NCBI GenBank assembly: GCA_965226885.1
Contig: CBDDEL010000009.1
Span: 128,001-192,000, forward strand
Source: Opitutales bacterium
GTDB taxonomy: Bacteria; Verrucomicrobiota; Verrucomicrobiia; Opitutales; UBA2987
Length of the DNA stretch: 64,000 nucleotides
Direction: 5' to 3'
The notes below the pieces were generated by a model. The model was not told the DNA's origin and did no database searches. It saw only the letters and a list, made by a program, of their open reading frames with translations. Of the stretch, positions 6,218 through 64,000 are shown one piece after another. The translations under genes were made by a program, and so were the position numbers. Numbering within the stretch: the first letter of the stretch is position 1; every line of letters starts with the position of its first letter.

Positions 6218-7019
6218 GGTAGTGTATAAAAAAAGAATGTTATTTTGTATTTTTAGCTGTACAAATAGCGTTAGGCAGTTTATTTTTAGTGCATGGTTAC
6301 TAAAATTATTAATTGTCGGCACTGTGGAAGTGAAAATATCATTAAATTTGGCAAGACGCCCAACCATAAACAGCGCTACCGCTGCCATGATTGTGGTGAA
6401 CAAAGCCGCGAAAACCCCACAGTGAAATACACCGAAGAGCAAAAAGAAATGATCCTTCGAGTCTATCAGGAACGCAGCAGTCTACGCGGTTTACAGCGCG
6501 CCTTCGGGGTGAGTCCCAACACCGTTTTGAGTTGGTTAAAAAAAACGACAATCGCTGCGACCGCTCAAAAGCACGATTCTTGCGGCCCGCCGCCATGATG
6601 TCATTGAACTGGACGAACTGTGGTCTTTTGTGGGGCGCAAGAGCGATGCCCAATGGGTTTGGATCGCTCTTTGCCGACGCACCCGTCAAATCCTCTCCTA
6701 TGCCATTGGGCCTCGGGATTGGTATCGTTGCCGGGAACTTTACGAGCGTCTGCCACGGGCCTACAAAAGATGTGCCACCTACAGCGACTTTTGGAGCACT
6801 TATGATGAAGTCTTTCCTCATAACCGATCCGTGGGAAAAGAAACCGGTGAAACGGCCCATGTGGAACGATGGAACAATACCCTGCGCCAACGACTGGGTC
6901 GTTTCACACGCAAAACCCTCTCCTTTTCCAAGCTTAAGAGTATGCATGAAACCTGTCTGAGACTTTTCATTCATCAATATAATCAAGAATTAGCCACCAT
7001 TCCTACTTAATACACTACC
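6218..7019 (+). mobile_element. IS1-family insertion sequence, 802 bp, copy 1 (apparently intact)
   Basis: Terminal IRs GGTAGTGTAT/ATACACTACC; InsA zinc finger and HTH (6293-6598); InsB DE.W and ERWNNTLRQR to 7010; A8C slippery site at 6538-6546; no target duplication. Confidence 0.93.
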
Positions 7020-7368
7020 CATTCACGGACACTGAGTTGAAATAGGCCGAAACATTCGCAATCGCCAGCCCATTCGCAACCGAGTCGGCAAAGGGCGTCA
7101 GGTCGATGAGGGTGTATAGATCTGCGCCAGTCCCAGAATTGGCACGGGCCATTTGGCTGCCTTCAAAGGGGACAATGCCGTTCTCAGCCGATGAGATTAT
7201 ATAGGAGTCGATTCCCCAACCAGTAAGGAGGTTTGGAGTTATCGTAATGCCGGTGCTTAAATCCGTACCCGGCGAAAGGTTTTCAAATCCCGGATCCGCC
7301 ACATCGGCGGTGGCGGGTAATACGCCGAAAAACAGCATGCCAGAAAGCCAAATTACCTGCTTGATCAT
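7020..7368 (-). pseudogene. Secreted protein, 3'-truncated by IS1
   Basis: Signal peptide MIKQVIWLSGMLFFGVLPATA then DPGFE; frame runs into the IS1 end, which supplies the stop. Confidence 0.65.
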
Positions 7369-7636
7369 ATGGTTCTGTAGATTATCAGGATTTCCCATAT
7401 AATGGGTATGAATCATTGAAATTATCGGCCTTTAAAAACGCTTTGGCAATTTTTTTTGTATCAGCTGGTTAATTATTGCCCTTCCGCCCTTTCTGGACAA
7501 GTTCCGGCAACAGGAAGCAGAACTTCAAAAAGCTGATAATTCAGACGAACCAGGCGATGTAAACAAGGTATATTGGCGTAAGGTTCATTCCACCAAGCAA
7601 AATCACTTATGGAATTAGCCGCCAGATCACTCTTTG

Positions 7637-54131: not shown

Positions 54132-55967
54132 CAGGCTGTCCCAAAAGGGTGATTTTTGCGAGGGCTTTTGATAGGCGCTCATTTTTTTGATAGGCGCTCA
54201 TTTTAGAGGTATTTGCATTTGGGAGAGTATCAACTTTGCTCTCCTATGACGTTAGGATACTGGTTTTGGGGTCCGGTTGCCTGGTTTTCTTTGTATGAGC
54301 CGACAGTACGGCTGTGAAAAAGTATTGTCCTTGCTTTTCCGCTCTCTAGGCCGCCGCTTTGGTTTTTAGTTCGTCTTGCTGGGCCAGCATCTTGGCTACT
54401 TTCCATAGGTTGTGCGAGAGTACCGACCAGGCTACGCTGATCGAGCGGTTGGCAAAGCCTTTGCTGCGCAACCGCCCGGCCTGCCAGCGATTCTTCAATA
54501 CCCCGATCCGCCCTTCGGTGCTGGCCCGGCGCTTTTGCAATTGTCTGAACAGTGGTTCCTCCATCCGTTTTTTCAACTGCTTCGGATCGCGTGGACAGAG
54601 CGCGTCGTAGATTCCCTCCTGGGCTAACTCCCAGCGGGCCCGCTGGGAGGCAAATCCCCGGTCCGCGCACATGGCCGCTATGGGTTCTTCCAGGTTGAAG
54701 CGGTTCTGTCTTTGCAAACTCTCTTGCATTTGTTCATTTTCGCTTGGAGTTCGGCTGCCGTAGAGTTTCCAGTCCAGCAGGTACCCTTCAACGCTTTCTC
54801 CCAAAAACAGGGTGTTGCCGAACTCGACCTCTTGGCCCGCTTTACCTCGCACAATCACCTGCCCATCGAGTTCGTAAACACTCAAGACTTTCTCTGCGTT
54901 TTTCACCTGGCGGCCGCCAATGATCCGCTCGTGCGCCTGTTTGATGACCACCGGGATTTGCTCGCTCATGCGCTCCATCCGGGCGAGGATCTGTTGGACC
55001 TGTTTTTCGCTGTAATCGCTTTGCTCCCAGCAGGCTTGCAATAATTCCCGGTGACTGCGGGCATGCTCCCCGATCCGTTTGAGCAGCTTTTTCATCTGCC
55101 TCAAGATACCCTTGCGCTGCCGCGCGCTGTCCTTTCGCCGCCGGCTGTGGGTCATCTGTATGCACAGCCGATTCATCTGCCGAGCCAAGGGCTCCGGTTC
55201 GATCGGCATGCGATGGCGCACACCGGCCTTCTCGCGGATCAGCCGGATCGCTTTGAGCAACGTGCCGGCTACATCCTTGAGTAATACCCAGTCCGTCGGC
55301 CAATGAATGTTAGCCTCCAAACAGGTGCCGTCGATCAGGCAAATGGTGGTGTCAATCGGCTTGTCCAATCCCACCTGCCGGGCCAGAAGGGCATCGCCCA
55401 CCACCTCAGTCAAGGTCCGGTGCAAGGCCCTCAACTGCTCTTCGCTGAAAAACTTCGAGGCCCGCTCCAGGGTGCTTTTGGAGATGCCCCTGATGCCATC
55501 GATCTGCCGGACACGGCAAAAGTCGGCCAACAGATCGCTGCTGCCCAGAGCCCGCGACAAATGCCGAAACGAAATCCCTCCGAGCAGACGGCCCAGCGTA
55601 TCCATGCGCAGTGCCTTGATGGCAAAACTGGCCCGCTGCCGCCGGGCCTTTAGACCCATTGGCTGCCACCCCTCCAAGGCCAGCTCAATGGCCTGCGATT
55701 CCACCTCCGAGTCGATCAGCAGCCGATCGATTCGATCAATGGTGGCGCGGAAGTTATCGTAATCGAGGCACCGGTCGACCACAGTTAAAGCTGGACGCAG
55801 GAGGCATTGGATGGCTATATTTTTCATAGAAAGGGCTATATTGATTTTCGCTAACTCAATTATAGAACCCTTTTTTGGCCGGATCGAGCAAAAACTTGCT
55901 CTTTCCGGCTCTTTTTATCAACGTCATCCAGTTGACTATAAAATCTTTATATTTTTGGGACAGCCTC
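54132..55967 (-). mobile_element. IS5-like/ISNCY copy 3 (1836 bp; transposase 54346-55827)
   Basis: Same element; terminal G->C change and a 19-bp internal duplication at 54166-54203. Confidence 0.92.
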
Positions 55968-56270
55968 TATATAATGCGACCACCAACCCGGCTACCCGCA
56001 TCTGGTTGATGATAAATACGAACAGCAGCCCTCCTGACAATCCGATCAGTTTCGCCTTCCAGGAACACGGAAAGGGCAGTACGGCACTGGCCAAAATGAG
56101 GTAAGCCAAGGCGCCATCGCAACCATAGCCGATGGCTATATTTCTCACTACTCCCTGAAAAGTAACCCACATGGTCACATCGTGAAGTATTATATCCACT
56201 CCAGCCAATCAGACAAAAAATGTGAATGCCATGGCCGTGAATTTATCGATCGGGTAAAGAACCGCTGCAG
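55968..56270 (-). pseudogene. Internal fragment of an exosortase-family protein
   Basis: I..GCDG catalytic Cys and NQMRV Arg motifs within TM helices; IS junctions on both sides. Confidence 0.78.
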
Positions 56271-57598
56271 TGATGTGCACTGGAAAAAGTGGACACGAGA
56301 TTCTCCTAAATGGAGAATCGAAGCATGGGAAGAAGACGCTTTAGTATAGAGTTCAAAAATGAGGCAGTTCAACTGATGATACTCGATGGTCTGAGCGCCA
56401 CCGAGGTATCGACCAAACTTAGGGTCAACACCAACCAATTGTATAGGTGGAAGAGGCTCTATCTGGACGATCAGCAGGGCGAAGCCACCTCAAAGCGACA
56501 GAGCAGTCCGAAGGAGATGGCGGCCGAGATAGATCGTCTTCGCAAAGAGCTGCGCCGCTCGGAGCGGATCAACCAGATACTAAAAAAAACGGTGGGCTAC
56601 TTTGCCAAGGACGAACAATGAAGTACCAGTTTGTCAAAGACAACGAGGGGCGCTTCAAGATCGAGGAAATATGCTCGGCGATGGGGATTTGTCGCAGTGG
56701 CTATTACTGCTGGAGGCACCGAGCGCCCTCGGCCCGGCGGATCGAGGACGAGGGAATCAAGGGGGCGATCCTGAAGGTACACAAAGAGGCCAAGGGCCGC
56801 TATGGGCATCGGCCAATGCACCGCCATCTGAAGGATGATGAGGGCATCGATTGCGGCCGTGACCGGGCTCTGCGTCTGATGCGTGAAATGGGAATCAAAA
56901 GCACCCAGAGTAAACGCTTTAAGCCATTAAAAACCAACAGTAACCATCCCTATGGTTACAGCCCCAATGTGCTTAAAAAGCATGGCCAGCCGACCCATAT
57001 CGACGAGGTCTGGGTGGCGGACACGACCTACCTACGGACCCTGGCCGGTTGGATGTACTTGGCCACGGTGATGGACCTGTTCAGCCGACGCCTGCTGGGC
57101 TGGAGCGTTTCCAACCACAACGACGCGAAGCTGGTTGGCAAGGCCCTCAAAGCCGCGGCCATGACCCGCGGCACACTGCGCACCGGGATTATTCATCACA
57201 GCGATCGGGGCAGCCCCTACGCCAGCGACGACTATCAGAGGCTGGTCTCTGAACTAGGCATGAAGCCGAGCATGAGCGGCCAAGGCAACTGCTACGACAA
57301 CGCGGCCATGGAATCGTTCTACGGCCGCTTCAAGACCAGCACGATTCGAGGCCGCCACTTTGCCGACGAGCGCGAACTGCGATCAACTGTCTTCGAATAC
57401 GTGGAAATCTTCTACAACCGATATCGCAAACATTCCTCTCTGAGTTACCAAAGCCCAGTCCAATTCGAGGAAAATATTTGCCCCCCATGGGGGGCAACGA
57501 GAAAACAAAACCCTTTACCAAAACAAGCCGCCTGACACACTAATCAATAAACAATGAATATAAGAGAATCCCGTGTCCAACAAATCCAGTACACGTCA
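56271..57598 (+). mobile_element. IS3-family insertion sequence, full length 1328 bp (orfA 56310-56621, orfB 56618-57535)
   Basis: TG...CA ends with imperfect IRs; A8C frameshift site 56582-56590; W.AD.TY, HSDRGS, GNCYDNA..ESF. Confidence 0.94.
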
Positions 57599-58165
57599 CC
57601 TACGGACCCTGGCCGGTTGGATGTACTTGGCCACGGTGATGGACCTGTTCAGCCGACGCCTGCTGGGCTGGAGCGTTTCCAACCACAACGACGCGAAGCT
57701 GGTTGGCAAGGCCCTCAAAGCCGCGGCCATGACCCGCGGCACACTGCGCACCGGGATTATTCATCACAGCGATCGGGGCAGCCCCTACGCCAGCGACGAC
57801 TATCAGAGGCTGGTCTCTGAACTAGGCATGAAGCCGAGCATGAGCGCCCAAGGCAACTGCTACGACAACGCGGCCATGGAATCGTTCTACGGCCGCTTCA
57901 AGACCAGCACGATTCGAGGCCGCCACTTTGCCGACGAGCGCGAACTGCGATCAACTGTCTTCGAATACGTGGAAATCTTCTACAACCGATATCGCAAACA
58001 TTCCTCTCTGAGTTACCAAAGCCCAGTCCAATTCGAGGAAAATATTTGCCCCCCATGGGGGCAACGAGAAAACAAAACCCTTTACCAAAACAAGCCGCCT
58101 GACACACTAATCAATAAACAATGAATATAAGAGAATCCCGTGTCCAACAAATCCAGTACACGTCA
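57599..58165 (+). mobile_element. IS3 3' fragment (567 bp) in tandem with the full copy
   Basis: Repeats 57031-57598 with few differences. Confidence 0.92.
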
Positions 58166-58237: not shown

Positions 58238-58894
58238 TCATTCAACCAATATCTTTTTCGCCGCGCTGGCCCCGATGGTCAATGTTTTGCCGGTGCAGAG
58301 AGAGAAAGTGACCGTGCCGGCAACCTGGTTTTGTTCTAAAATCTTGAGATCCGTTCCTGGCTGAAGCCCATTATCTTCAATGAATCGAAGAAATTCCGGG
58401 TCTTGATCGGTAATGCGCGATATGCACAGAGGCTCTCCTCTCGGACTGCCGGAGAGATTCTCCAGATTGCGGGCGTCGATTTTTCCTTTGGCCGTGGGAA
58501 TCGGGTCTCCGTGCGGGTCCACCGTCGGGTATGCCAGCAGAGCGTCGATTTTTTCTAATACCTTATCCGAAATGACGTGTTCGAGTTTTTCCGCCTCCTC
58601 GTGTATTTCCGACCAACTCAGGCCGAGAATTTCTACCAGAAAAAGTTCGACCAGCCGGTGGCGGCGAAGCACATGCAAAGCGAGCTTTTCCCCTTTTTCG
58701 GTCAGCCTCACGCCTATGCGGGGGGCATAGTCGACCAAGCCCGAGTCGGCCAGGGACTTTGCCATAGTGGTCGTGGTGCCGGGGACGACACCCAGAGCCG
58801 ATGCCACCCTGCCCATGGGAACCCGCGATCCTTCCGCTTGCTGCTGCTCCAACAGGATTTGCTTGAGGTAATTTTCTACGGTGCTAGTGGCCAT
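58238..58894 (-). CDS. DtxR/MntR-family metal-dependent transcriptional regulator
   Basis: ENYLK, RRHRLVELFL, HEEAEKLEH, DPHGDPIP, C-terminal FeoA domain. Confidence 0.93.
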   Translation of the reverse strand: MATSTVENYLKQILLEQQQAEGSRVPMGRVASALGVVPGTTTTMAKSLADSGLVDYAPRIGVRLTEKGEKLALHVLRRHRLVELFLVEILGLSWSEIHEEAEKLEHVISDKVLEKIDALLAYPTVDPHGDPIPTAKGKIDARNLENLSGSPRGEPLCISRITDQDPEFLRFIEDNGLQPGTDLKILEQNQVAGTVTFSLCTGKTLTIGASAAKKILVE

Positions 58895-58987
58895 GAGTTG
58901 AGACTTTTTTGCGAAGCTGACAGGTTTTCGGGTTTTGAACAAATAAAATCCTTTTACGACGTGTCCCTGATTAATTATGTTTGTGCC

Positions 58988-59833
58988 CTATCTTAAACGG
59001 CGCCGAATTTGGATGCTGGCCTGTTCCACCGCCAGGACCACCAGCATGGTTACCAGCACCATGGTGGCAACGCTCCGGTAGTCGAAGGCGCGGCGGTAGT
59101 TTTCTATCCACAAACCCAATCCTCCCACTCCCACAAATCCGAGCACGGCGGAATCGCGAATGTTCATATCGATGCGAAAAAGAATGAGCGAAGCGAATTG
59201 CCTGGAAACCTGCGGCCAGATGGCGAAGCGGACCTTTTGCAGCCAGTTGGCGCCAGCACTGTCGAGCGCTTCCCAGACGCCCCATTCGGCGCTCTCGCAT
59301 TGTTCCGCAAAAAGTTTGCCCAGCATCCCAATGGAGTGAATGGCTATGGCCAGGACGCCCGCAAACGGTCCCAACCCAACTGCGGCGACAAAGAGCAAAG
59401 CCAGCACCAGGACCGGGATCGACCGCAGAAGTGCCAGCATGGTTTTGATCGGATGGTGTATCCAGGCCGGAGTCAGGTTTTCGGCTGCCAGAAAGCCCAG
59501 TCCAAAAGCGGCCAGGGTTCCCAAAAAAGTTCCCAAAAGCGAGATTTGCAGGGTCACCGCGACGGTTTCACCGGCCAGCCGCAAGGGCGGCACAAAGGGC
59601 CGCGCCTCGGTCGGATTCCAGGATAAATCCGGGGGCAGCATGCGGGAAAGAAATAGCTTCAGGTTGGGGGTCGATCGTGCCAACTCGAAAATATTCATTT
59701 CCGTGCCCACCCAAGACCAGACCAAAACCGCGGTTACCGAAGCGAGAATAATGAGATGGACCGCAATCCGTTTCCCTTTACCCGGAAACGGGGGCGGCGT
59801 CATCATCGAAGTAGAGGAGGTTTTTTCCGCCAT
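58988..59833 (-). CDS. PhnE/PtxC-family ABC permease
   Basis: RSIP, VGLGPFAGVLAI.IHSIGMLGKLFAE, NIRDSAVLG.VG.GG.G. Confidence 0.9.
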   Translation of the reverse strand: MAEKTSSTSMMTPPPFPGKGKRIAVHLIILASVTAVLVWSWVGTEMNIFELARSTPNLKLFLSRMLPPDLSWNPTEARPFVPPLRLAGETVAVTLQISLLGTFLGTLAAFGLGFLAAENLTPAWIHHPIKTMLALLRSIPVLVLALLFVAAVGLGPFAGVLAIAIHSIGMLGKLFAEQCESAEWGVWEALDSAGANWLQKVRFAIWPQVSRQFASLILFRIDMNIRDSAVLGFVGVGGLGLWIENYRRAFDYRSVATMVLVTMLVVLAVEQASIQIRRRLR

Positions 59834-60560
59834 AGATTCCTTCCATTTTTGATTCCGTGAGTGTGTCTGAAGGGCCGTCGAAAACGACGCGACCTTCCTT
59901 CAAGCCGATAATTCTTTTTGCGTAAGTCTTTGCCAAACGTGGCTGGTGCAAGCTCATAATGAGGGTGTTTTCATGGTGTTTCTGCACTTCTGACAACAGT
60001 TGCAGGACTTCCGCCGCCCGCAGGGGGTCGAGGCTCGAGACCGGCTCGTCGGCCAGGATGAGGGAAGGGCGTTGAGCCAGGGCGCGGGCCACGGCCACTC
60101 TTTGTTGCTCGCCCCCGCTGAGCGTTTCCGCCATTTGATGAACGAGATCGGACAGACCCACCTCGCAAATGGCCTCCCAGGCAATGCGTCGATCCCGGGG
60201 CGGGAAATAACCGAATAACGAGGGGAGCGGATGCGCCGCCCCCAGCCGCCCACAGAGAACGTTTTGCCAGACCGTCATCCTCGGAGCGAGATGGAATTGC
60301 TGGTAGATCAACCCCATCCGCCGTTTGATCCGGTTTCTCTGCCGACGCGCCGCCAAAAAAAGATTGCAGCCCAATATTTCGACTTTTCCCTGAACCGGCG
60401 GCACATAGCCCTTGAGGCATCGCAGAAGGGTGCTTTTGCCTGCTCCGCTGGGACCGATTACAGCCACTCTTTCGCCGCCCTCAATACGGAGGCTTGGAAT
60501 GGCGAGGGCCGCCGGCTTGTTTTTGCCGTAACGAACCTCCAAGTGTTCGATTGTGACCAT
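59778..60560 (-). CDS. PhnC/PtxA-family ABC ATP-binding protein
   Basis: GPSGAGKST, NVL.GRLG, LSGGEQQRVA, ADEPVSSLDP. Confidence 0.9.
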   Translation of the reverse strand: MVTIEHLEVRYGKNKPAALAIPSLRIEGGERVAVIGPSGAGKSTLLRCLKGYVPPVQGKVEILGCNLFLAARRQRNRIKRRMGLIYQQFHLAPRMTVWQNVLCGRLGAAHPLPSLFGYFPPRDRRIAWEAICEVGLSDLVHQMAETLSGGEQQRVAVARALAQRPSLILADEPVSSLDPLRAAEVLQLLSEVQKHHENTLIMSLHQPRLAKTYAKRIIGLKEGRVVFDGPSDTLTESKMEGIYGGKNLLYFDDDAAPVSG

Positions 60561-60581
60561 GGGTCGGATGGCGGGGTCAAG

Positions 60582-61514
60582 TTATGGAGAAAATAATTCC
60601 GGTTTTTTAACGAAACCGTGACGCGCCGCGATCTTCGCTACTTCGGAAAAATCGGAAAGCCGGGCTTTCGTAAACCCGCGCACCCCATACAATTTATTCA
60701 ATAAAATTTTATCTTCCGGGTCGTTCCAATCCAGGGCCAGTAGGGCTTCCTGGATTTTCTCCCGGATTTCCTGGCTCAGTCCCCGGCGTGCCATGACCAG
60801 ATGAGATGGACTTTGAATGGAATCGGCAATGGTCATTACCCGGTCGCGTTCCTCCGGCCGCAGAAGTAGGTAGGCGTACTGGCTGATCCCGGCCGCATCG
60901 ACAAAGCCGTTGAGAACGGCGCGGATGGCCTGCTCGTCCCCGCCCGCAAAATAGACTTGTTTGAAAAATCCGCCTTCCGGCTTGTTGCCGTTGAGCAGTT
61001 TGGCCCGGTTGAAGACATCCCTTGGCAATAAATGCCCCGACATGTCCACCTGGTCGGCATAGGCAATGGTTTTCCCCTGCAAATCGGCCAGGCTGGCGAT
61101 CGATTCTCCTCGCCTTACCCAGATAGAGGAGTGGTAGGTGGGTTGGCCGCTCTCATAAACTTCCAGCAAGAGCGGGATGACTCCGATTTGCTCATGGGCC
61201 ATCATGAAAGCCAGTGGATCGACAAAGGCGAGGTCCGCTTTTTCAGCCCGCATGGCTTCGATGGAAGAGCCGTAGTCCAGGGTGATGAAACCCTTTACCG
61301 GCCTACCCAGAAGCGGCTCCAGGTAATTCAGAATGGCTTCGCTGTCGTAGGCCACCTGTTGGGGATTGGCATAGGAGATAAAGGCGATACGGAGTTCCCG
61401 TTCATCGGATTCCCCACCTTTTGCCAGCGGATTGGATTGCAGGATCGTCCCGACTACAACTGCTATAAAAAAGGCTTTCATGGACATACCCGTAAACGAA
61501 AATTGTTGGTTCAT
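60582..61514 (-). CDS. PhnD/PtxB-fold substrate-binding protein with altered ligand site
   Basis: DY...IEAM....DLAF, Y.S.I.V, I.SL.DL.GK; DMSG and GGDE at the STSG and G.H positions. Confidence 0.85.
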   Translation of the reverse strand: MNQQFSFTGMSMKAFFIAVVVGTILQSNPLAKGGESDERELRIAFISYANPQQVAYDSEAILNYLEPLLGRPVKGFITLDYGSSIEAMRAEKADLAFVDPLAFMMAHEQIGVIPLLLEVYESGQPTYHSSIWVRRGESIASLADLQGKTIAYADQVDMSGHLLPRDVFNRAKLLNGNKPEGGFFKQVYFAGGDEQAIRAVLNGFVDAAGISQYAYLLLRPEERDRVMTIADSIQSPSHLVMARRGLSQEIREKIQEALLALDWNDPEDKILLNKLYGVRGFTKARLSDFSEVAKIAARHGFVKKPELFSP

Positions 61515-63433
61515 TTTAACACCTCCACATTTTCTGCGTAGAGCGCCCGGTATTCGGCCACTTTGGTTCGCACTTCTTCAACATTGCCCTCGCGGTTGGC
61601 GGCAAGGGCTTCGTCCATGATTTCTGCCATCATTTCCAGGATCGGTCGATATTGTGAATCCCGCAGTTCCCATTTATGATTGCGGATCTCGAACGCGATG
61701 GTTTGGAAAGTCAGATTGATGGAAACCTGCTCGTTCTTTTCTTCCAAAAACTCGTAGGCCGATAGAAAAAAGTAAAACTCCTCCATCTCGGCATCCAGGT
61801 AGTAGGTGGTGTCTTCGTAGGGATCGATTCCATCTCCCACCGTTTCCAAATAGGCCGTCAGGTCTTCTTTTTCATTTTCATCCAGATTGAGGCCGTAAGT
61901 CCGGTCAAACCAATCGACGACCGAACGCAAGGTGGGCTGGCTCCCGTCATGAAAATAGGGCGGCGACCAAAGGGTGCTGAGCAGGGTGGGGGTGTCCATA
62001 GTCCTGTCCAGCGAGTTTTCTCCGTAACCGGATACCGTACCGATGTCGTGTCGTTTGTGATCGACGAAATTGGCCGAGGGAATATGGCAACTGGCGCAGC
62101 TCATCCCGCCCATGCGGGAAAAGGGTTTGTTGAAAATCATCTCTCCCCGTTTGGCCGTTTCCGGGGCTGTCTCGGCCAGCTGGCCATCTTTTTGCAAATG
62201 CTTGTTGGGCAGAAAGTCGAACTCGTTCATGTAGGCGATCAAACCGTCCAGGATAACAGGGTCCGGCTCCGGTCCGTTGAATTCATTGACGATTACATTG
62301 CGGGTAAATTCGCGCAGTGATGCGAAACGCCCGTTGCGTCCATAGGGAGCGGTAAAGCGGATGCCGCGCAAATCGGGGATATTGAGGGGATCGAAATGTC
62401 CGTTGTTGGCATGGGGGGCAAAGAAGCTGTTGGACACATCCATACCGCCCTTTCTTCCAGACAGGCCCGGTATCATGAAATCTGGGTTGGTGATGCTTTT
62501 ATTGTGGCAGCTATTACAGGACAAGCCGATTGAGCGCATGGGGTTTCCGTAGATAAAGGCGCTGTCGAAAGCCATGTCCCCCACCGCTATGAGCGGCGTC
62601 CCGGCTTCGTCCACCCCGCGTGAAGCCATGTTGAGAATTTGCCGTGGGCGCGGTATTTGTTTGTTGATATTGCTGCCGGGGGGAAGTTTCATGGGCAGTC
62701 GCGCAGTGGAATCATAGGTTGGACTGCGGACCGGACGGGGGGCCAGTTTTATTCCGGCGGAAGGAATAAAATCTTCACCGAAATTCATGCTCAAATACTC
62801 GACAATTTGCCGGGCAGCCCGTTGGAAATCATCGCGATTGGCTTCCACCACGCCGAACCCCAGCAATCCCGCCGACCCCAGCGCATTGGTCATGCCAAGC
62901 CAGCTTTGACCCAAATGGTAGTAGCCCTCCATATCGCCTACCCGTATAACGTCCGAAAATGAATCGAATACTCCGCGGGCATTTTCGACCTCTTTAGAGG
63001 CTGCCTGCGGGGTTTCAAACAACTCCTCGGCAACACCGATATGCTGCCGGCACAAGGCGGAAACGCTCTTGGTAAGGGTTTGAAAAACTTCCCGACTGTC
63101 CATGTTTTCGAGGCCTTTTATTAACTGCCGGTTAAAATGCTCTCCTACTGCCGGAGCGAACTCATTCCAGTAGTTGGCGACTGTTTCCAGGTCTCCCTTG
63201 ACCCATTCCCAGTCCACCGGATTAAGATTAAGAATGAAGGCCGACCGCCGATAAGCCTCGGCCACCGGATGGAGGTTCTCCTGGGGAATAATGTGGGCTA
63301 TGGCCAGACCTTGCCCCAATGCCAAAAGAGCGATTAGGGTAAACGGAATCTTCTTGCCAGGCAAACTTTGGCACATCCGCAGACCAGCAATTTGATGGAT
63401 GTTCGACCAGGTAAATATTGAATTTAAACGCAT
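61511..63433 (-). CDS. Exported diheme cytochrome c, peroxidase (bCcP/MauG) superfamily, with large N- and C-terminal extensions
   Basis: Signal peptide; CNSCH (62504-62518) and CASCH (62084-62098); RGE.IF, TPTL, PPYFHDGS. Confidence 0.85.
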   Translation of the reverse strand: MRLNSIFTWSNIHQIAGLRMCQSLPGKKIPFTLIALLALGQGLAIAHIIPQENLHPVAEAYRRSAFILNLNPVDWEWVKGDLETVANYWNEFAPAVGEHFNRQLIKGLENMDSREVFQTLTKSVSALCRQHIGVAEELFETPQAASKEVENARGVFDSFSDVIRVGDMEGYYHLGQSWLGMTNALGSAGLLGFGVVEANRDDFQRAARQIVEYLSMNFGEDFIPSAGIKLAPRPVRSPTYDSTARLPMKLPPGSNINKQIPRPRQILNMASRGVDEAGTPLIAVGDMAFDSAFIYGNPMRSIGLSCNSCHNKSITNPDFMIPGLSGRKGGMDVSNSFFAPHANNGHFDPLNIPDLRGIRFTAPYGRNGRFASLREFTRNVIVNEFNGPEPDPVILDGLIAYMNEFDFLPNKHLQKDGQLAETAPETAKRGEMIFNKPFSRMGGMSCASCHIPSANFVDHKRHDIGTVSGYGENSLDRTMDTPTLLSTLWSPPYFHDGSQPTLRSVVDWFDRTYGLNLDENEKEDLTAYLETVGDGIDPYEDTTYYLDAEMEEFYFFLSAYEFLEEKNEQVSINLTFQTIAFEIRNHKWELRDSQYRPILEMMAEIMDEALAANREGNVEEVRTKVAEYRALYAENVEVLK

Positions 63434-63497
63434 GTATTGGAATAAGATTTATTATGTTTCGATTCCCAGAAACTTTTTTTTGGACTAATAGTCAAGG

Positions 63498-63519
63498 ACA
63501 TTTTGATTAATCAAAATGT
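63498..63519. promoter_or_regulatory. Perfect 22-bp palindrome ACATTTTGATTAATCAAAATGT, candidate operator
   Basis: Read directly; 65 bp upstream of the cytochrome start. Confidence 0.6.
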
Positions 63520-63644: not shown

Positions 63645-64000
63645 TTATGGGGCTTTTGCCAGAGCCGCGAGGGCATCCTGGGCCTGGCTGGCCGGGGTGG
63701 CCTTGAGATCCCGCCAGACTATTTTGCCGTCCTTGATGAGGAAAGCCTGCCGGCGGGCATAGGTATCCACATAGGGCACCCCAAAAGCCTGCACAACTTT
63801 TCCCTTGGCATCGGCAATCAAAGTGAATGGCAGGTGGTATTTTTCCTTAAAGGCCAATTGCGCCTCGGGCGTGTCCATGCTTACGCCAAAAACGGTGATG
63901 CCCGCTTCGCCCAACTCCGTGTAGGCGTCGCGCAGGTTGCAAGCCTGGGTGGTGCAGCCCGGCGTGTCAGCCTTGGGGTAGAAATACACCAGCACGGCGC
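63645..64000 (-). CDS. bcp: Peroxiredoxin, BCP/PrxQ type (5' end outside window)
   Basis: VYFYPKADTPGCT.QAC motif. Confidence 0.9.
   Translation of the reverse strand, partial: AVLVYFYPKADTPGCTTQACNLRDAYTELGEAGITVFGVSMDTPEAQLAFKEKYHLPFTLIADAKGKVVQAFGVPYVDTYARRQAFLIKDGKIVWRDLKATPASQAQDALAALAKAP

Follow-up and report, generated by a model that had tools for sequence, protein, structure and literature searches.

We describe here an operon of five co-oriented genes in a 64,000-nucleotide stretch of the genome of an Opitutales bacterium (NCBI GenBank assembly GCA_965226885.1, contig CBDDEL010000009.1, positions 128,001 to 192,000; hereafter the window), which encodes a diheme protein, the three parts of an ATP-binding cassette (ABC) importer and a DtxR/MntR-family metalloregulator. 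Our favored explanation, which we hold with somewhat better than even confidence, is that the operon is a metal-repressed, high-affinity cation uptake system, most likely for Mn and possibly for Fe, that derives from a phosphonate/phosphite-type ABC importer and changes the redox state of its metal at hand-off. An earlier note on this DNA had already suggested a phosphonate-family importer converted to Mn or Fe. That suggestion is now supported by four results of the analysis, namely the linkage of the genes, the operators in front of them, the replacement of ligand residues in the binding protein and the absence of phosphonate catabolism genes; metal binding itself is suggested by these.

All five genes lie head to tail on the minus strand and are co-oriented, as had been claimed. 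At the upstream end is the gene for a 640-aa periplasmic diheme protein of the cytochrome c peroxidase (CCP)/MauG superfamily (61511-63433), with a CCP_MauG domain and two CxxCH motifs. Its stop codon shares the ATGA at 61511-61514 with the start of the gene for a 310-aa substrate-binding protein of PhnD/PtxB fold (60582-61514, PF12974), whose pocket appears remodelled. Next come a PhnC-like ABC ATPase (59778-60560), which matches PF00005 and scores just below the cut-off of PhnC family TIGR02315 (258.3 bits vs 266.1), and a PhnE-type ABC permease (58988-59833), which scores above that of TIGR01097 (259.9 bits vs 216.7). The open reading frames (ORFs) of these two overlap by at most 56 nt, and by less if a later ATG is the true start, so that both overlaps noticed earlier are visible in the ORF coordinates. 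The last gene encodes the 234-aa DtxR/MntR-family metalloregulator, composed of Fe_dep_repress, Fe_dep_repr_C and a C-terminal SH3-like (FeoA) domain; its start is probably the ATG at 58894, inside the annotated ORF 58238-58942. The 18-bp perfect palindrome ATTTTGATTAATCAAAAT at 63500-63517, 67 nt upstream of the cytochrome start, is the predicted operator of a DtxR/MntR-type regulator, and a weak operator-like site, TTTTGAACAAATAAAA, with two mismatches, lies between the permease and regulator genes at 58933-58948; both sites are unstranded.

The arrangement is not a product of chance, because it recurs across phyla. A pattern scan based on the binding-protein alignment yielded 19 loci in genomes, and a second scan started from the cytochrome yielded 80 loci in metagenomes. 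The genome loci carry the host labels Opitutales, Verrucomicrobia, Planctomycetota, Phycisphaerae and Nitrospinae, and Acidobacteria and Thermoanaerobaculia occur among the names of homologous proteins. A cytochrome gene lies upstream of the binding-protein gene in all 17 genome loci that have upstream DNA, with a PF13557 gene between the two in L006. Read in the other direction, the binding-protein gene follows the cytochrome gene wherever at least 500 nt are available downstream in genome loci (16/16) and in 61 of 62 such metagenome loci, the single miss (L076) having just 528 nt after the cytochrome; with at least 3200 nt downstream, the full set of binding protein, ATPase and permease is present in 15/15 genome and 32/32 metagenome loci. 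The linkage that the earlier proposal relied on is thus conserved. The cytochrome and binding-protein genes often overlap by 4 nt across loci. At E<=0.001 there are 599 homologues of the binding protein and 1082 of the cytochrome, and the top 120 in either set share 53-100% identity with the window proteins. In genomes the family is sparse: with at most three candidates scored per genome, a search for the cytochrome at E<=1e-30 came up empty in 400 other sampled genomes of the window's phylum and gave matches in 3 out of 400 others from the phylum to which L003 belongs.

The binding protein belongs to PF12974 (190.9 bits vs a cut-off of 27) and passes the subfamily model TIGR01098 (156.7 vs 112.05), but it fails the PhnD equivalog TIGR03431 (137.4 vs 261.1). 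Its structural model has a predicted local distance difference test (pLDDT) score of 85.4, and the top Foldseek matches are PtxB, ArrX and PhnD (E ~1e-21; PtxB 1.1e-21, TMt 0.78). The fold search also lists transferrins, from rank 44 on, and in the profile search one transferrin is a weak match (29.4 bits). According to Bisson et al. (PMC5700983), the phosphite ligands of Ps_PtxB are Y94, S124, T125, S126 and H155, and its capping tyrosine is held by D16; we placed Y49 and the cap, Y203, by offset from Y55 and Y208 of Te_PtxB in the same source. In a profile alignment, Y49 and Y94 correspond to Y81 and Y127 of the window protein, and both flanking tyrosines are therefore kept, as was claimed. 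The remaining positions align as follows: S124, T125 and S126 align with D157, M158 and S159, H155 with D193, the cap Y203 with H238, and D16 with Y48. The S-T-S...H motif and capping Tyr of the oxyanion binders have become D-M-S...D and a His, which bears out the claimed loss of the PhnD/PtxB oxyanion motif. Codon arithmetic confirms where the two motifs had been placed, with D157-M158-S159-G160 at 61035-61046 and G191-G192-D193-E194 at 60933-60944. Among the best 120 homologues, Y48, Y127, D157, S159, D193, E194 and H238 are kept in all 120 and Y81 and M158 in 119. Two carboxylates, three tyrosines and one histidine in place of oxyanion hydrogen-bond donors would suit a hard cation.

A C-terminal YHS domain with the pattern CP...GFCC..C occurs on 3 of the 120 listed binding-protein homologues (P0015, P0059 and P0066), and a separate YHS/TRASH protein is encoded at L004:2868-3548, two genes beyond the divergent regulator. 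YHS is a putative metal-binding domain.

The regulator matches PF01325, PF02742 and PF04023, all above cut-off. The solved structures most closely related to it are 5zr4 (148.6 bits), which we take to be MntR of M. tuberculosis on the strength of reference 38 of the DR2539 preprint only, 8pvt (123.4 bits), which is the D. radiodurans Mn sensor DR2539, and SloR and ScaR, with IdeR at 81 and DtxR at 62 bits. The family domains and the closeness to Mn-sensing relatives agree with the earlier description of a metal-sensing DtxR/MntR protein. The primary sites of DtxR and IdeR have Met and Cys. In the preprint on DR2539 (bioRxiv 10.1101/2024.02.12.579695), the primary site is D11/E102/E105/H106 and the binuclear ancillary site H79/E83/H98/D126/H128/D130, and acidic primary sites are said to mark Mn-specific regulators and sulphur ligands Fe-specific ones. 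Aligned to those positions, the window regulator has N/E/E/H at the primary site and H/E/H/D/H/D at the ancillary site, and neither Met nor Cys is among these ligands; it differs from DR2539 in having Asn where the primary site there has Asp. Judged from its relatives and these residues, the window regulator looks Mn-type, with Fe possible. It is the only DtxR-family gene in its genome.

Metalloregulators also recur beside the operon elsewhere. The 19 genome loci contain seven SH3-type DtxR-like regulators, located downstream and co-oriented in L001 and L014 and upstream and divergent in L003, L004, L007, L008 and L013. They further contain three small MntR proteins, encoded directly upstream and co-oriented in L005, L006 and L010, and one Fur-family regulator. 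L006 (195.1) and L010 (160.9) pass the E. coli-type MntR equivalog NF008273, the cut-off of which is 153. Around the 80 metagenome loci, tblastn found 13 DtxR-like, 12 MntR-like and 1 Fur-like neighbors. Tro-like metal ABC genes stand beside the operon in L003, L009 and L017, and the binding protein in L009 is closest to TroA of T. pallidum (195.7 bits). We also observed that ABC-3 (TroC/D-like) permeases at two of these loci carry a C-terminal fusion to the DtxR-family domain Fe_dep_repr_C (L009:5190-6491; L017:4817-6289 and 6286-7602); the fused permeases adjoin a TroA-like binding protein and lie directly downstream of the operon.

Nowhere else in the 5.48-Mb genome does the palindrome ATTTTGATTAATCAAAAT occur without a mismatch. 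Given a sole DtxR-family gene and a genome-unique perfect operator, the operon looks like the main target of the regulator. The window, L001, L003, L004, L007, L014 and L018 all have a perfect TTTTGA-N4-TCAAAA ahead of the operon, and at up to one mismatch there are 8 sites in the 19 genome loci, compared with a mean of 0.21 and a maximum of 2 after shuffling. A different box, TGTAGC-N4-GCTACA, stands in front of the mntR-cytochrome operons; its core and spacing match those of the enterobacterial MntR site AACATAGCnnnnGCTATGTT as given in section 17 of PMC1698941. Seventy loci have at least 300 nt before the cytochrome, and within 1.3 kb upstream 21 of them have TTTTGA-N4-TCAAAA (at most one mismatch) and 12 have TGTAGC-N4-GCTACA. 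This amounts to 33 boxes in 85 kb of upstream DNA vs 7 in 601 kb elsewhere, and some of those seven are meaningful, such as the box before the TroA-like gene in L003. In both L003 and L017 the neighboring TroA-like gene is preceded by the box types of the operon, and in L012, which has the Fur-family gene, a 7-1-7 palindrome, TGATACAgTGTATCA, stands before the operon. The DR2539 operator ATTTTAGTCGCGCCTAAAAT has AT-rich arms similar to those of the window palindrome and a longer spacer. The linkage to DtxR/MntR regulators that had been expected is accordingly found in the neighboring genes and, through footprinting, in the operators.

Where the boxes lie suggests how they may act. By eye, the box overlaps a sigma-70-like -10 hexamer in L003 and L004 (TTGATT-17-TATATT in both), in L010 (TTGCAA-16-TACAAT) and in L006, which fits the geometry of a repressor, and the operon would be repressed rather than activated. 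The TTTTGAACAAATAAAA site may mean autoregulation, a suggestion that we make with low confidence; the 64-kb window holds seven other sites with two mismatches, so it could be due to chance. As for a wider regulon, the window's genome has no second site without mismatches and one site with a single mismatch (C17:810258), and a genome scan at four mismatches was swamped by an insertion sequence (IS) element.

The diheme protein matches CCP_MauG (PF03150) at 47.9 bits vs a cut-off of 25.6, and both CxxCH motifs (306-310 and 446-450) are invariant in the 14 cytochrome sequences that we aligned, over which mean column identity is 60%. The protein consists of a signal peptide, a mature N-terminal His47, an N-terminal helical domain (~75-245), the diheme core and a C-terminal four-helix bundle (~540-640). 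The earlier note had called it a diheme cytochrome. The two hemes stand, and a role as a plain electron carrier is contradicted by this three-part architecture of a CCP/MauG-superfamily enzyme. That the mature protein begins with His is indicated by a small residue before H-(I/V)-(I/V) that ends the signal peptide in 78 of the 81 loci having this region (57 by regular expression and 21 more by eye, the remaining three being cut or broken there); L018 shows the motif in the 14-sequence alignment. The nearest solved relatives in a profile search of the PDB are the gamma subunit of hydrazine synthase, bacterial CCPs and MauG. The best NCBIfam match is the MbnH family, TIGR04039, which lies far below its cut-off (41 vs 362.85), and the MauG equivalog TIGR03791 is likewise not reached (33.5 vs 443.85). 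In a single sequence alignment, W508 faces the Met of AVNTMADIQLG in 3o5c, which we take to be the heme ligand of a bacterial CCP (bCCP). The fold model is poor in the heme core (pLDDT 25-45) and confident for the N-terminal helical domain and the C-terminal bundle. The accessory parts match little: Pfam at E<=10 gave only chance-level matches for residues 47-290 and 533-640, and the ESM Atlas gave no usable match for residues 47-250. With the complete model as query, VIA-align found partners for the C-terminal bundle only, and these were generic bundles, cytochrome b562 fusions among them, at Z ~13, a value common for helical bundles; this search barely probed the N-terminal domain and heme core, where the model is poor.

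Next to the cytochrome gene, 5 of the 19 genome loci have a PF13557 (Phenol_MetA_deg) gene (L006:6680-7729, L007:4842-5741, L008:1862-2509, L012:4892-5752 and L015:4711-5649). With tblastn it is also found in 16 of the 80 metagenome loci, whereas the window lacks it. We take this to be an outer-membrane beta-barrel family, and the protein may serve as the outer-membrane entry for the ligand.

A predicted complex connects the two proteins. When cytochrome residues 47-640, binding-protein residues 36-310 and two hemes were modelled together, the interface score (ipSAE) was 0.67, and the best of three controls scored 0.00. Of 157 solved complexes, 116 reach the mark used for this score, as do 2 of 215 mismatched pairs; these counts are a rough guide here since our own alignments were used and the heme ligand was included. 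At least 93% of contacts are common to the runs, and the partner pLDDT is at least 86. The predicted interface involves residues 49-52, 171-196 and 584-594 of the cytochrome and residues 80-82, 154-156 and 188-191 of the binding protein with their neighbors, which form the cleft rim by Y81, D157 and D193. This prediction supports, but does not establish, docking of the cytochrome over the cleft of the binding protein. No solved complex of this type is known to us, which makes it unlikely that the predictor reproduced a memorized structure.

The rest of the genome bears on what the operon could supply. In this genome, which is 96.3% complete, PhnJ has no match, and the search for phosphonatase found only HAD-family matches, all below cut-off (ptxD was not searched for). 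This agrees with the claim, made from the window, that no C-P (carbon-phosphorus) lyase or phnX gene accompanies the operon. There is one true PF12974 protein in the genome. The best Nramp (MntH-like) gene is split between two frames (G000:C16:573168-574179), possibly through an assembly error, and the second-best match (G000:C15:606834-607667) covers profile positions 87-356 only and has an internal TAG. No ZnuA-family protein was found in this genome. With a split Nramp gene and no ZnuA-family gene, the operon may be the main intact Mn importer.

Certain features of the surrounding DNA are best noted here. A gene for a Bcp-type peroxiredoxin lies directly upstream of the operon and co-oriented with it in the window (63645-63998) and in L001 (5433-5939), L014 (927-1610) and L018 (3-74). 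The latter three are Opitutales relatives (88-92% identity), and the gene is not upstream in other phyla. Downstream of the regulator, synteny is broken in the window by IS copies (54346-58124): a transposase-like ORF on the minus strand (54346-55827), an IS3-type orfA/orfB pair (56310-57535) and a 5'-truncated second copy of the same orfB (57573-58124). In L001 and L014, this position holds a 148-153-aa ORF and a sulfite-oxidase-like Mo enzyme. A further IS element, whose C-terminal peptide looks IS1-like to us, has ~204 near-identical copies in the genome, as judged by exact matches to an 18-mer close to its 3' end, and two of the copies end at 6963 and 36073 of the window. Around the 18-mer, conservation stays at or above 90% over a stretch that begins 150 nt or more upstream of it and runs to ~58 nt beyond its start. 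For a genome of 5.5 Mb, the expansion is very large.

We propose the following working model. When metal is plentiful, the repressor would carry Mn(II), or perhaps Fe(II), sit on the promoter palindrome and keep the operon off. Once metal becomes scarce, the diheme enzyme, the binding protein and the PhnC/PhnE-like ATPase and permease would be made. The binding protein, having kept the PhnD fold, would hold a hard cation through a carboxylate, tyrosinate and imidazole set (Y48, Y81, Y127, D157, D193/E194 and H238). The diheme enzyme would dock at the mouth of the cleft via its accessory helical domains and N-terminal segment and change the redox state of the metal during hand-off, much as an oxidase is coupled to import in EfeUOB or Fet3-Ftr1, after which the loaded binding protein would pass the metal to the ABC permease. 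In this model we infer both the identity of the ligand and the direction of the redox step.

Several observations weigh against this proposal, and some of them concern the pocket. Its composition rests on alignment and not on model coordinates, the register at the His position is ambiguous by one residue relative to Te_PtxB (G192 or D193), and everything said of the ligand of the binding protein is inference. Furthermore, the family is divided. In an alignment of 74 near-full-length sequences (the window and 73 loci), 43 form a clade A with D-M-S, and 31 form a clade B that is 40-48% identical to the window protein and keeps S-S-S at positions 157-159, near the oxyanion motif (L038, L045, L047, L049, L053-L056, L058, L060, L063, L069, L070, L073, L075, L077, L079-L087, L090, L091, L096, L097 and L099). 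Clade B has D-P-S-S-S-G where the window has D-Q-V-D-M-S-G, and F replaces W132; it keeps H238 in 31/31, G-G-D-E-Q in 29/31 (G-G-D-Q-Q in L082 and L097) and Y48 in 27/31. It likewise follows the cytochrome and sits behind both DtxR/MntR box types. The earlier note had proposed to test whether homologues with DMSG co-occur with the cytochrome and a DtxR/MntR regulator; D-M-S proves to be confined to clade A, and clade B occupies the same context with S-S-S. The story of an anion site turned into a cation site therefore fits clade A only. Transferrin and FbpA bind their metal together with a synergistic anion, and on one reading clade B may do the same, clade A having replaced the anion by Asp157. 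On another reading, the ligand is not a bare cation at all.

Other difficulties concern the choice of metal, the control and the numbers. Tyrosinate ligands are typical of Fe(III) and not of Mn(II), so that a Tyr-rich pocket would favor a trivalent ion while the regulators look Mn-type. DR2539 itself is called a dual Mn/Fe repressor in the title of PMC3327659. The SH3-type regulators score below the NCBIfam equivalog cut-offs (window NF047407, 171.3 vs 350), and a regulator or strict box is present at only about half of the loci. A consensus promoter scan called no sigma-70-like promoter upstream of the window cytochrome, and the nearest TTGACT there comes after the operator, which leaves repression unproven for the window copy. 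Weaker Nramp-family matches (55, 44 and 42 bits) exist in the genome, so the operon is not provably the sole Mn importer. Finally, several metagenome loci are near-identical, and the linkage counts given above are thus not independent.

The heme protein may hold the answer to the mismatch between sensor and pocket. It could change the redox state of the metal or modify the binding protein, and either would reconcile Mn-type regulators with a Tyr-rich pocket. More speculatively, and with rather low confidence, we suggest that enzyme and binding protein form a working complex without known precedent among ABC importers, in which the enzyme either oxidizes the metal to a trivalent state for a tyrosinate-rich, transferrin-like site (a Mn(III) or Fe(III) hand-off) or oxidizes a pocket Tyr or Trp and so builds the metal site, as MbnH does for MbnP, and in which the invariant mature N-terminal His helps to carry the metal into the cleft.

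We consider it unlikely, but worth entertaining, that modification of the binding protein is the whole function of the diheme protein: like MauG or MbnH, it would oxidize one of the invariant pocket residues Y48, Y81, Y127 and W132 to a catechol, quinone or cross-link that acts as metal ligand, and the metal would not be redox-cycled. Membership of the bCCP/MauG superfamily, a best NCBIfam match to MbnH, distant as it is, and the alignment of the bCCP Met ligand position with W508 would all be expected of such an enzyme, as would genes that are almost always adjacent and often overlap by 4 nt, and a predicted position at the mouth of the cleft that no control reproduces. A precedent for building a metal site exists, since MbnH turns a Trp of its neighbor MbnP into kynurenine and so builds a Cu site, as described in section 2.1.5 of PMC11951088. 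Yet the predicted contacts are made by the accessory helical domains and the N-terminal segment and not visibly by the heme core, which is poorly modelled, and a catalytic maturase needs no production in step with its substrate. Alternatively, the ABC importer could take up Mn(II) or Fe(II) unaided, with the diheme protein as a periplasmic peroxidase co-expressed in the same oxidative-stress response. Bacterial CCPs detoxify periplasmic H2O2 (PMC11892367); Bcp is directly upstream in the window, L001, L014 and L018; and the Fur-family neighbor in L012 scores best as PerR, below cut-off (66.6 vs 180). Nevertheless, we judge this quite improbable, given that Bcp is adjacent in Opitutales loci only and that the near-obligate adjacency across phyla, the two family-specific accessory domains, the invariant mature N-terminal His and the predicted complex at the cleft would go unexplained.

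The ligand might also be something other than a metal. A neutral or anionic hydroxy-compound, a metal-anion complex or an organic cation held in a cage of Asp and Tyr, needed when Mn or Fe is short and made or transformed by the heme enzyme, would sit well with the Ser-Ser-Ser of clade B. Titles of PhnD-fold structures include arsenite, arsenate, glycerol-1-phosphate, ATP and sterol, and amine and quaternary-ammonium binding proteins use Asp with aromatic residues. We nonetheless give this little credence, as three unrelated sensor classes (DtxR-like, MntR and Fur-family) and Tro-like neighbors point to the metal itself, and the genes conserved beside the operon include none that would make or break down such a compound. 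Least credible to us is that the operon encodes what its annotation states, an ordinary importer of phosphonate, phosphite or phosphate, which we regard as very improbable. The matches above cut-off to PF12974, TIGR01098 and PhnE TIGR01097 do speak for it, as do the homologues named 'phosphonate transport system substrate-binding protein' and a phosphodiesterase gene near the operon in L004. However, the PhnD equivalog is missed by a wide margin, other residues stand in place of the S-T-S...H ligands and of the capping Tyr, the genome is without PhnJ and without a phosphonatase above cut-off, and control is by metal sensors and not visibly by Pho (no Pho-box search was made).

We regard the finding as real and conserved, and as undescribed in the literature as far as it was searched: it is probably a variant of the metal ABC importer with an unprecedented partner. 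Full-text searching, which leaves most subscription journals outside its coverage, found no metal-binding PhnD-family protein and no such operon, and current source annotations call the binding protein a phosphonate-binding protein and the cytochrome a cytochrome c peroxidase. Known bacterial Mn importers are few, namely Nramp, the cluster A-I ABC systems and a few others. If our proposal is true, the operon would represent a new family of Mn importers, set apart by the fold of its binding protein and by its obligatory heme partner, and the first metal specificity in the PhnD/PtxB family, spread over at least five phyla by record labels and with more than 1000 cytochrome homologues in metagenomes. 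Surveys of marine and groundwater metagenomes routinely assign members of the PhnD/PtxB family to phosphonate or phosphite transport, so their counts of such transporters would then be inflated. The S-S-S of clade B and the D-M-S of clade A would offer a test case for the evolution of an anion site into a cation site, and the diheme partner one for how redox chemistry or a maturase may assist in loading a binding protein.

How the system relates to known ones depends on the component that is compared. With PhnCDE, PtxABC and HtxBCDE it shares the binding-protein fold, the permease and ATPase families and two pocket tyrosines (Y81 and Y127), and it differs in its replaced oxyanion ligands and cap, its control by metal sensors, its obligate diheme partner and the lack of a P-catabolic partner in the window's genome (PhnJ and phosphonatase; ptxD was not searched for). 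MntH and the MntABC, SitABCD and TroABCD systems have regulator families and operator types like those found here, and Tro-like genes even stand beside the operon at three loci. Unlike the binding proteins of those ABC systems, which are of the ZnuA/TroA cluster A-I type, that of the window is a PhnD-type class II protein; the permease is of another family, and a heme enzyme is added. The Tyr-rich Fe(III) sites of FbpA, FutA and the transferrin lobes lie in a class II fold, with tyrosines and Asp or His at the cleft; residues of these kinds map by alignment to pocket positions of the window protein, which is no member of that group by sequence, and the regulators look Mn-type rather than Fur/Fe-type.

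The closest conceptual parallels are EfeUOB, Fet3-Ftr1 and FetMP, in which, as proposed here, a periplasmic redox enzyme is coupled to metal import. In EfeUOB, this enzyme is the periplasmic heme peroxidase EfeB. The components are nevertheless nonhomologous, since the window system would combine a diheme c-type relative of CCP and MauG with an ABC importer and its binding protein. MauG and MbnH are related by superfamily, and here too the gene adjoins that of a putative target, as with MbnH, which builds the metal site of MbnP (PMC11951088). The window cytochrome differs from both in scoring far below their equivalog models, in having extra N- and C-terminal helical domains, and in its partner, which is the binding protein of an ABC importer.

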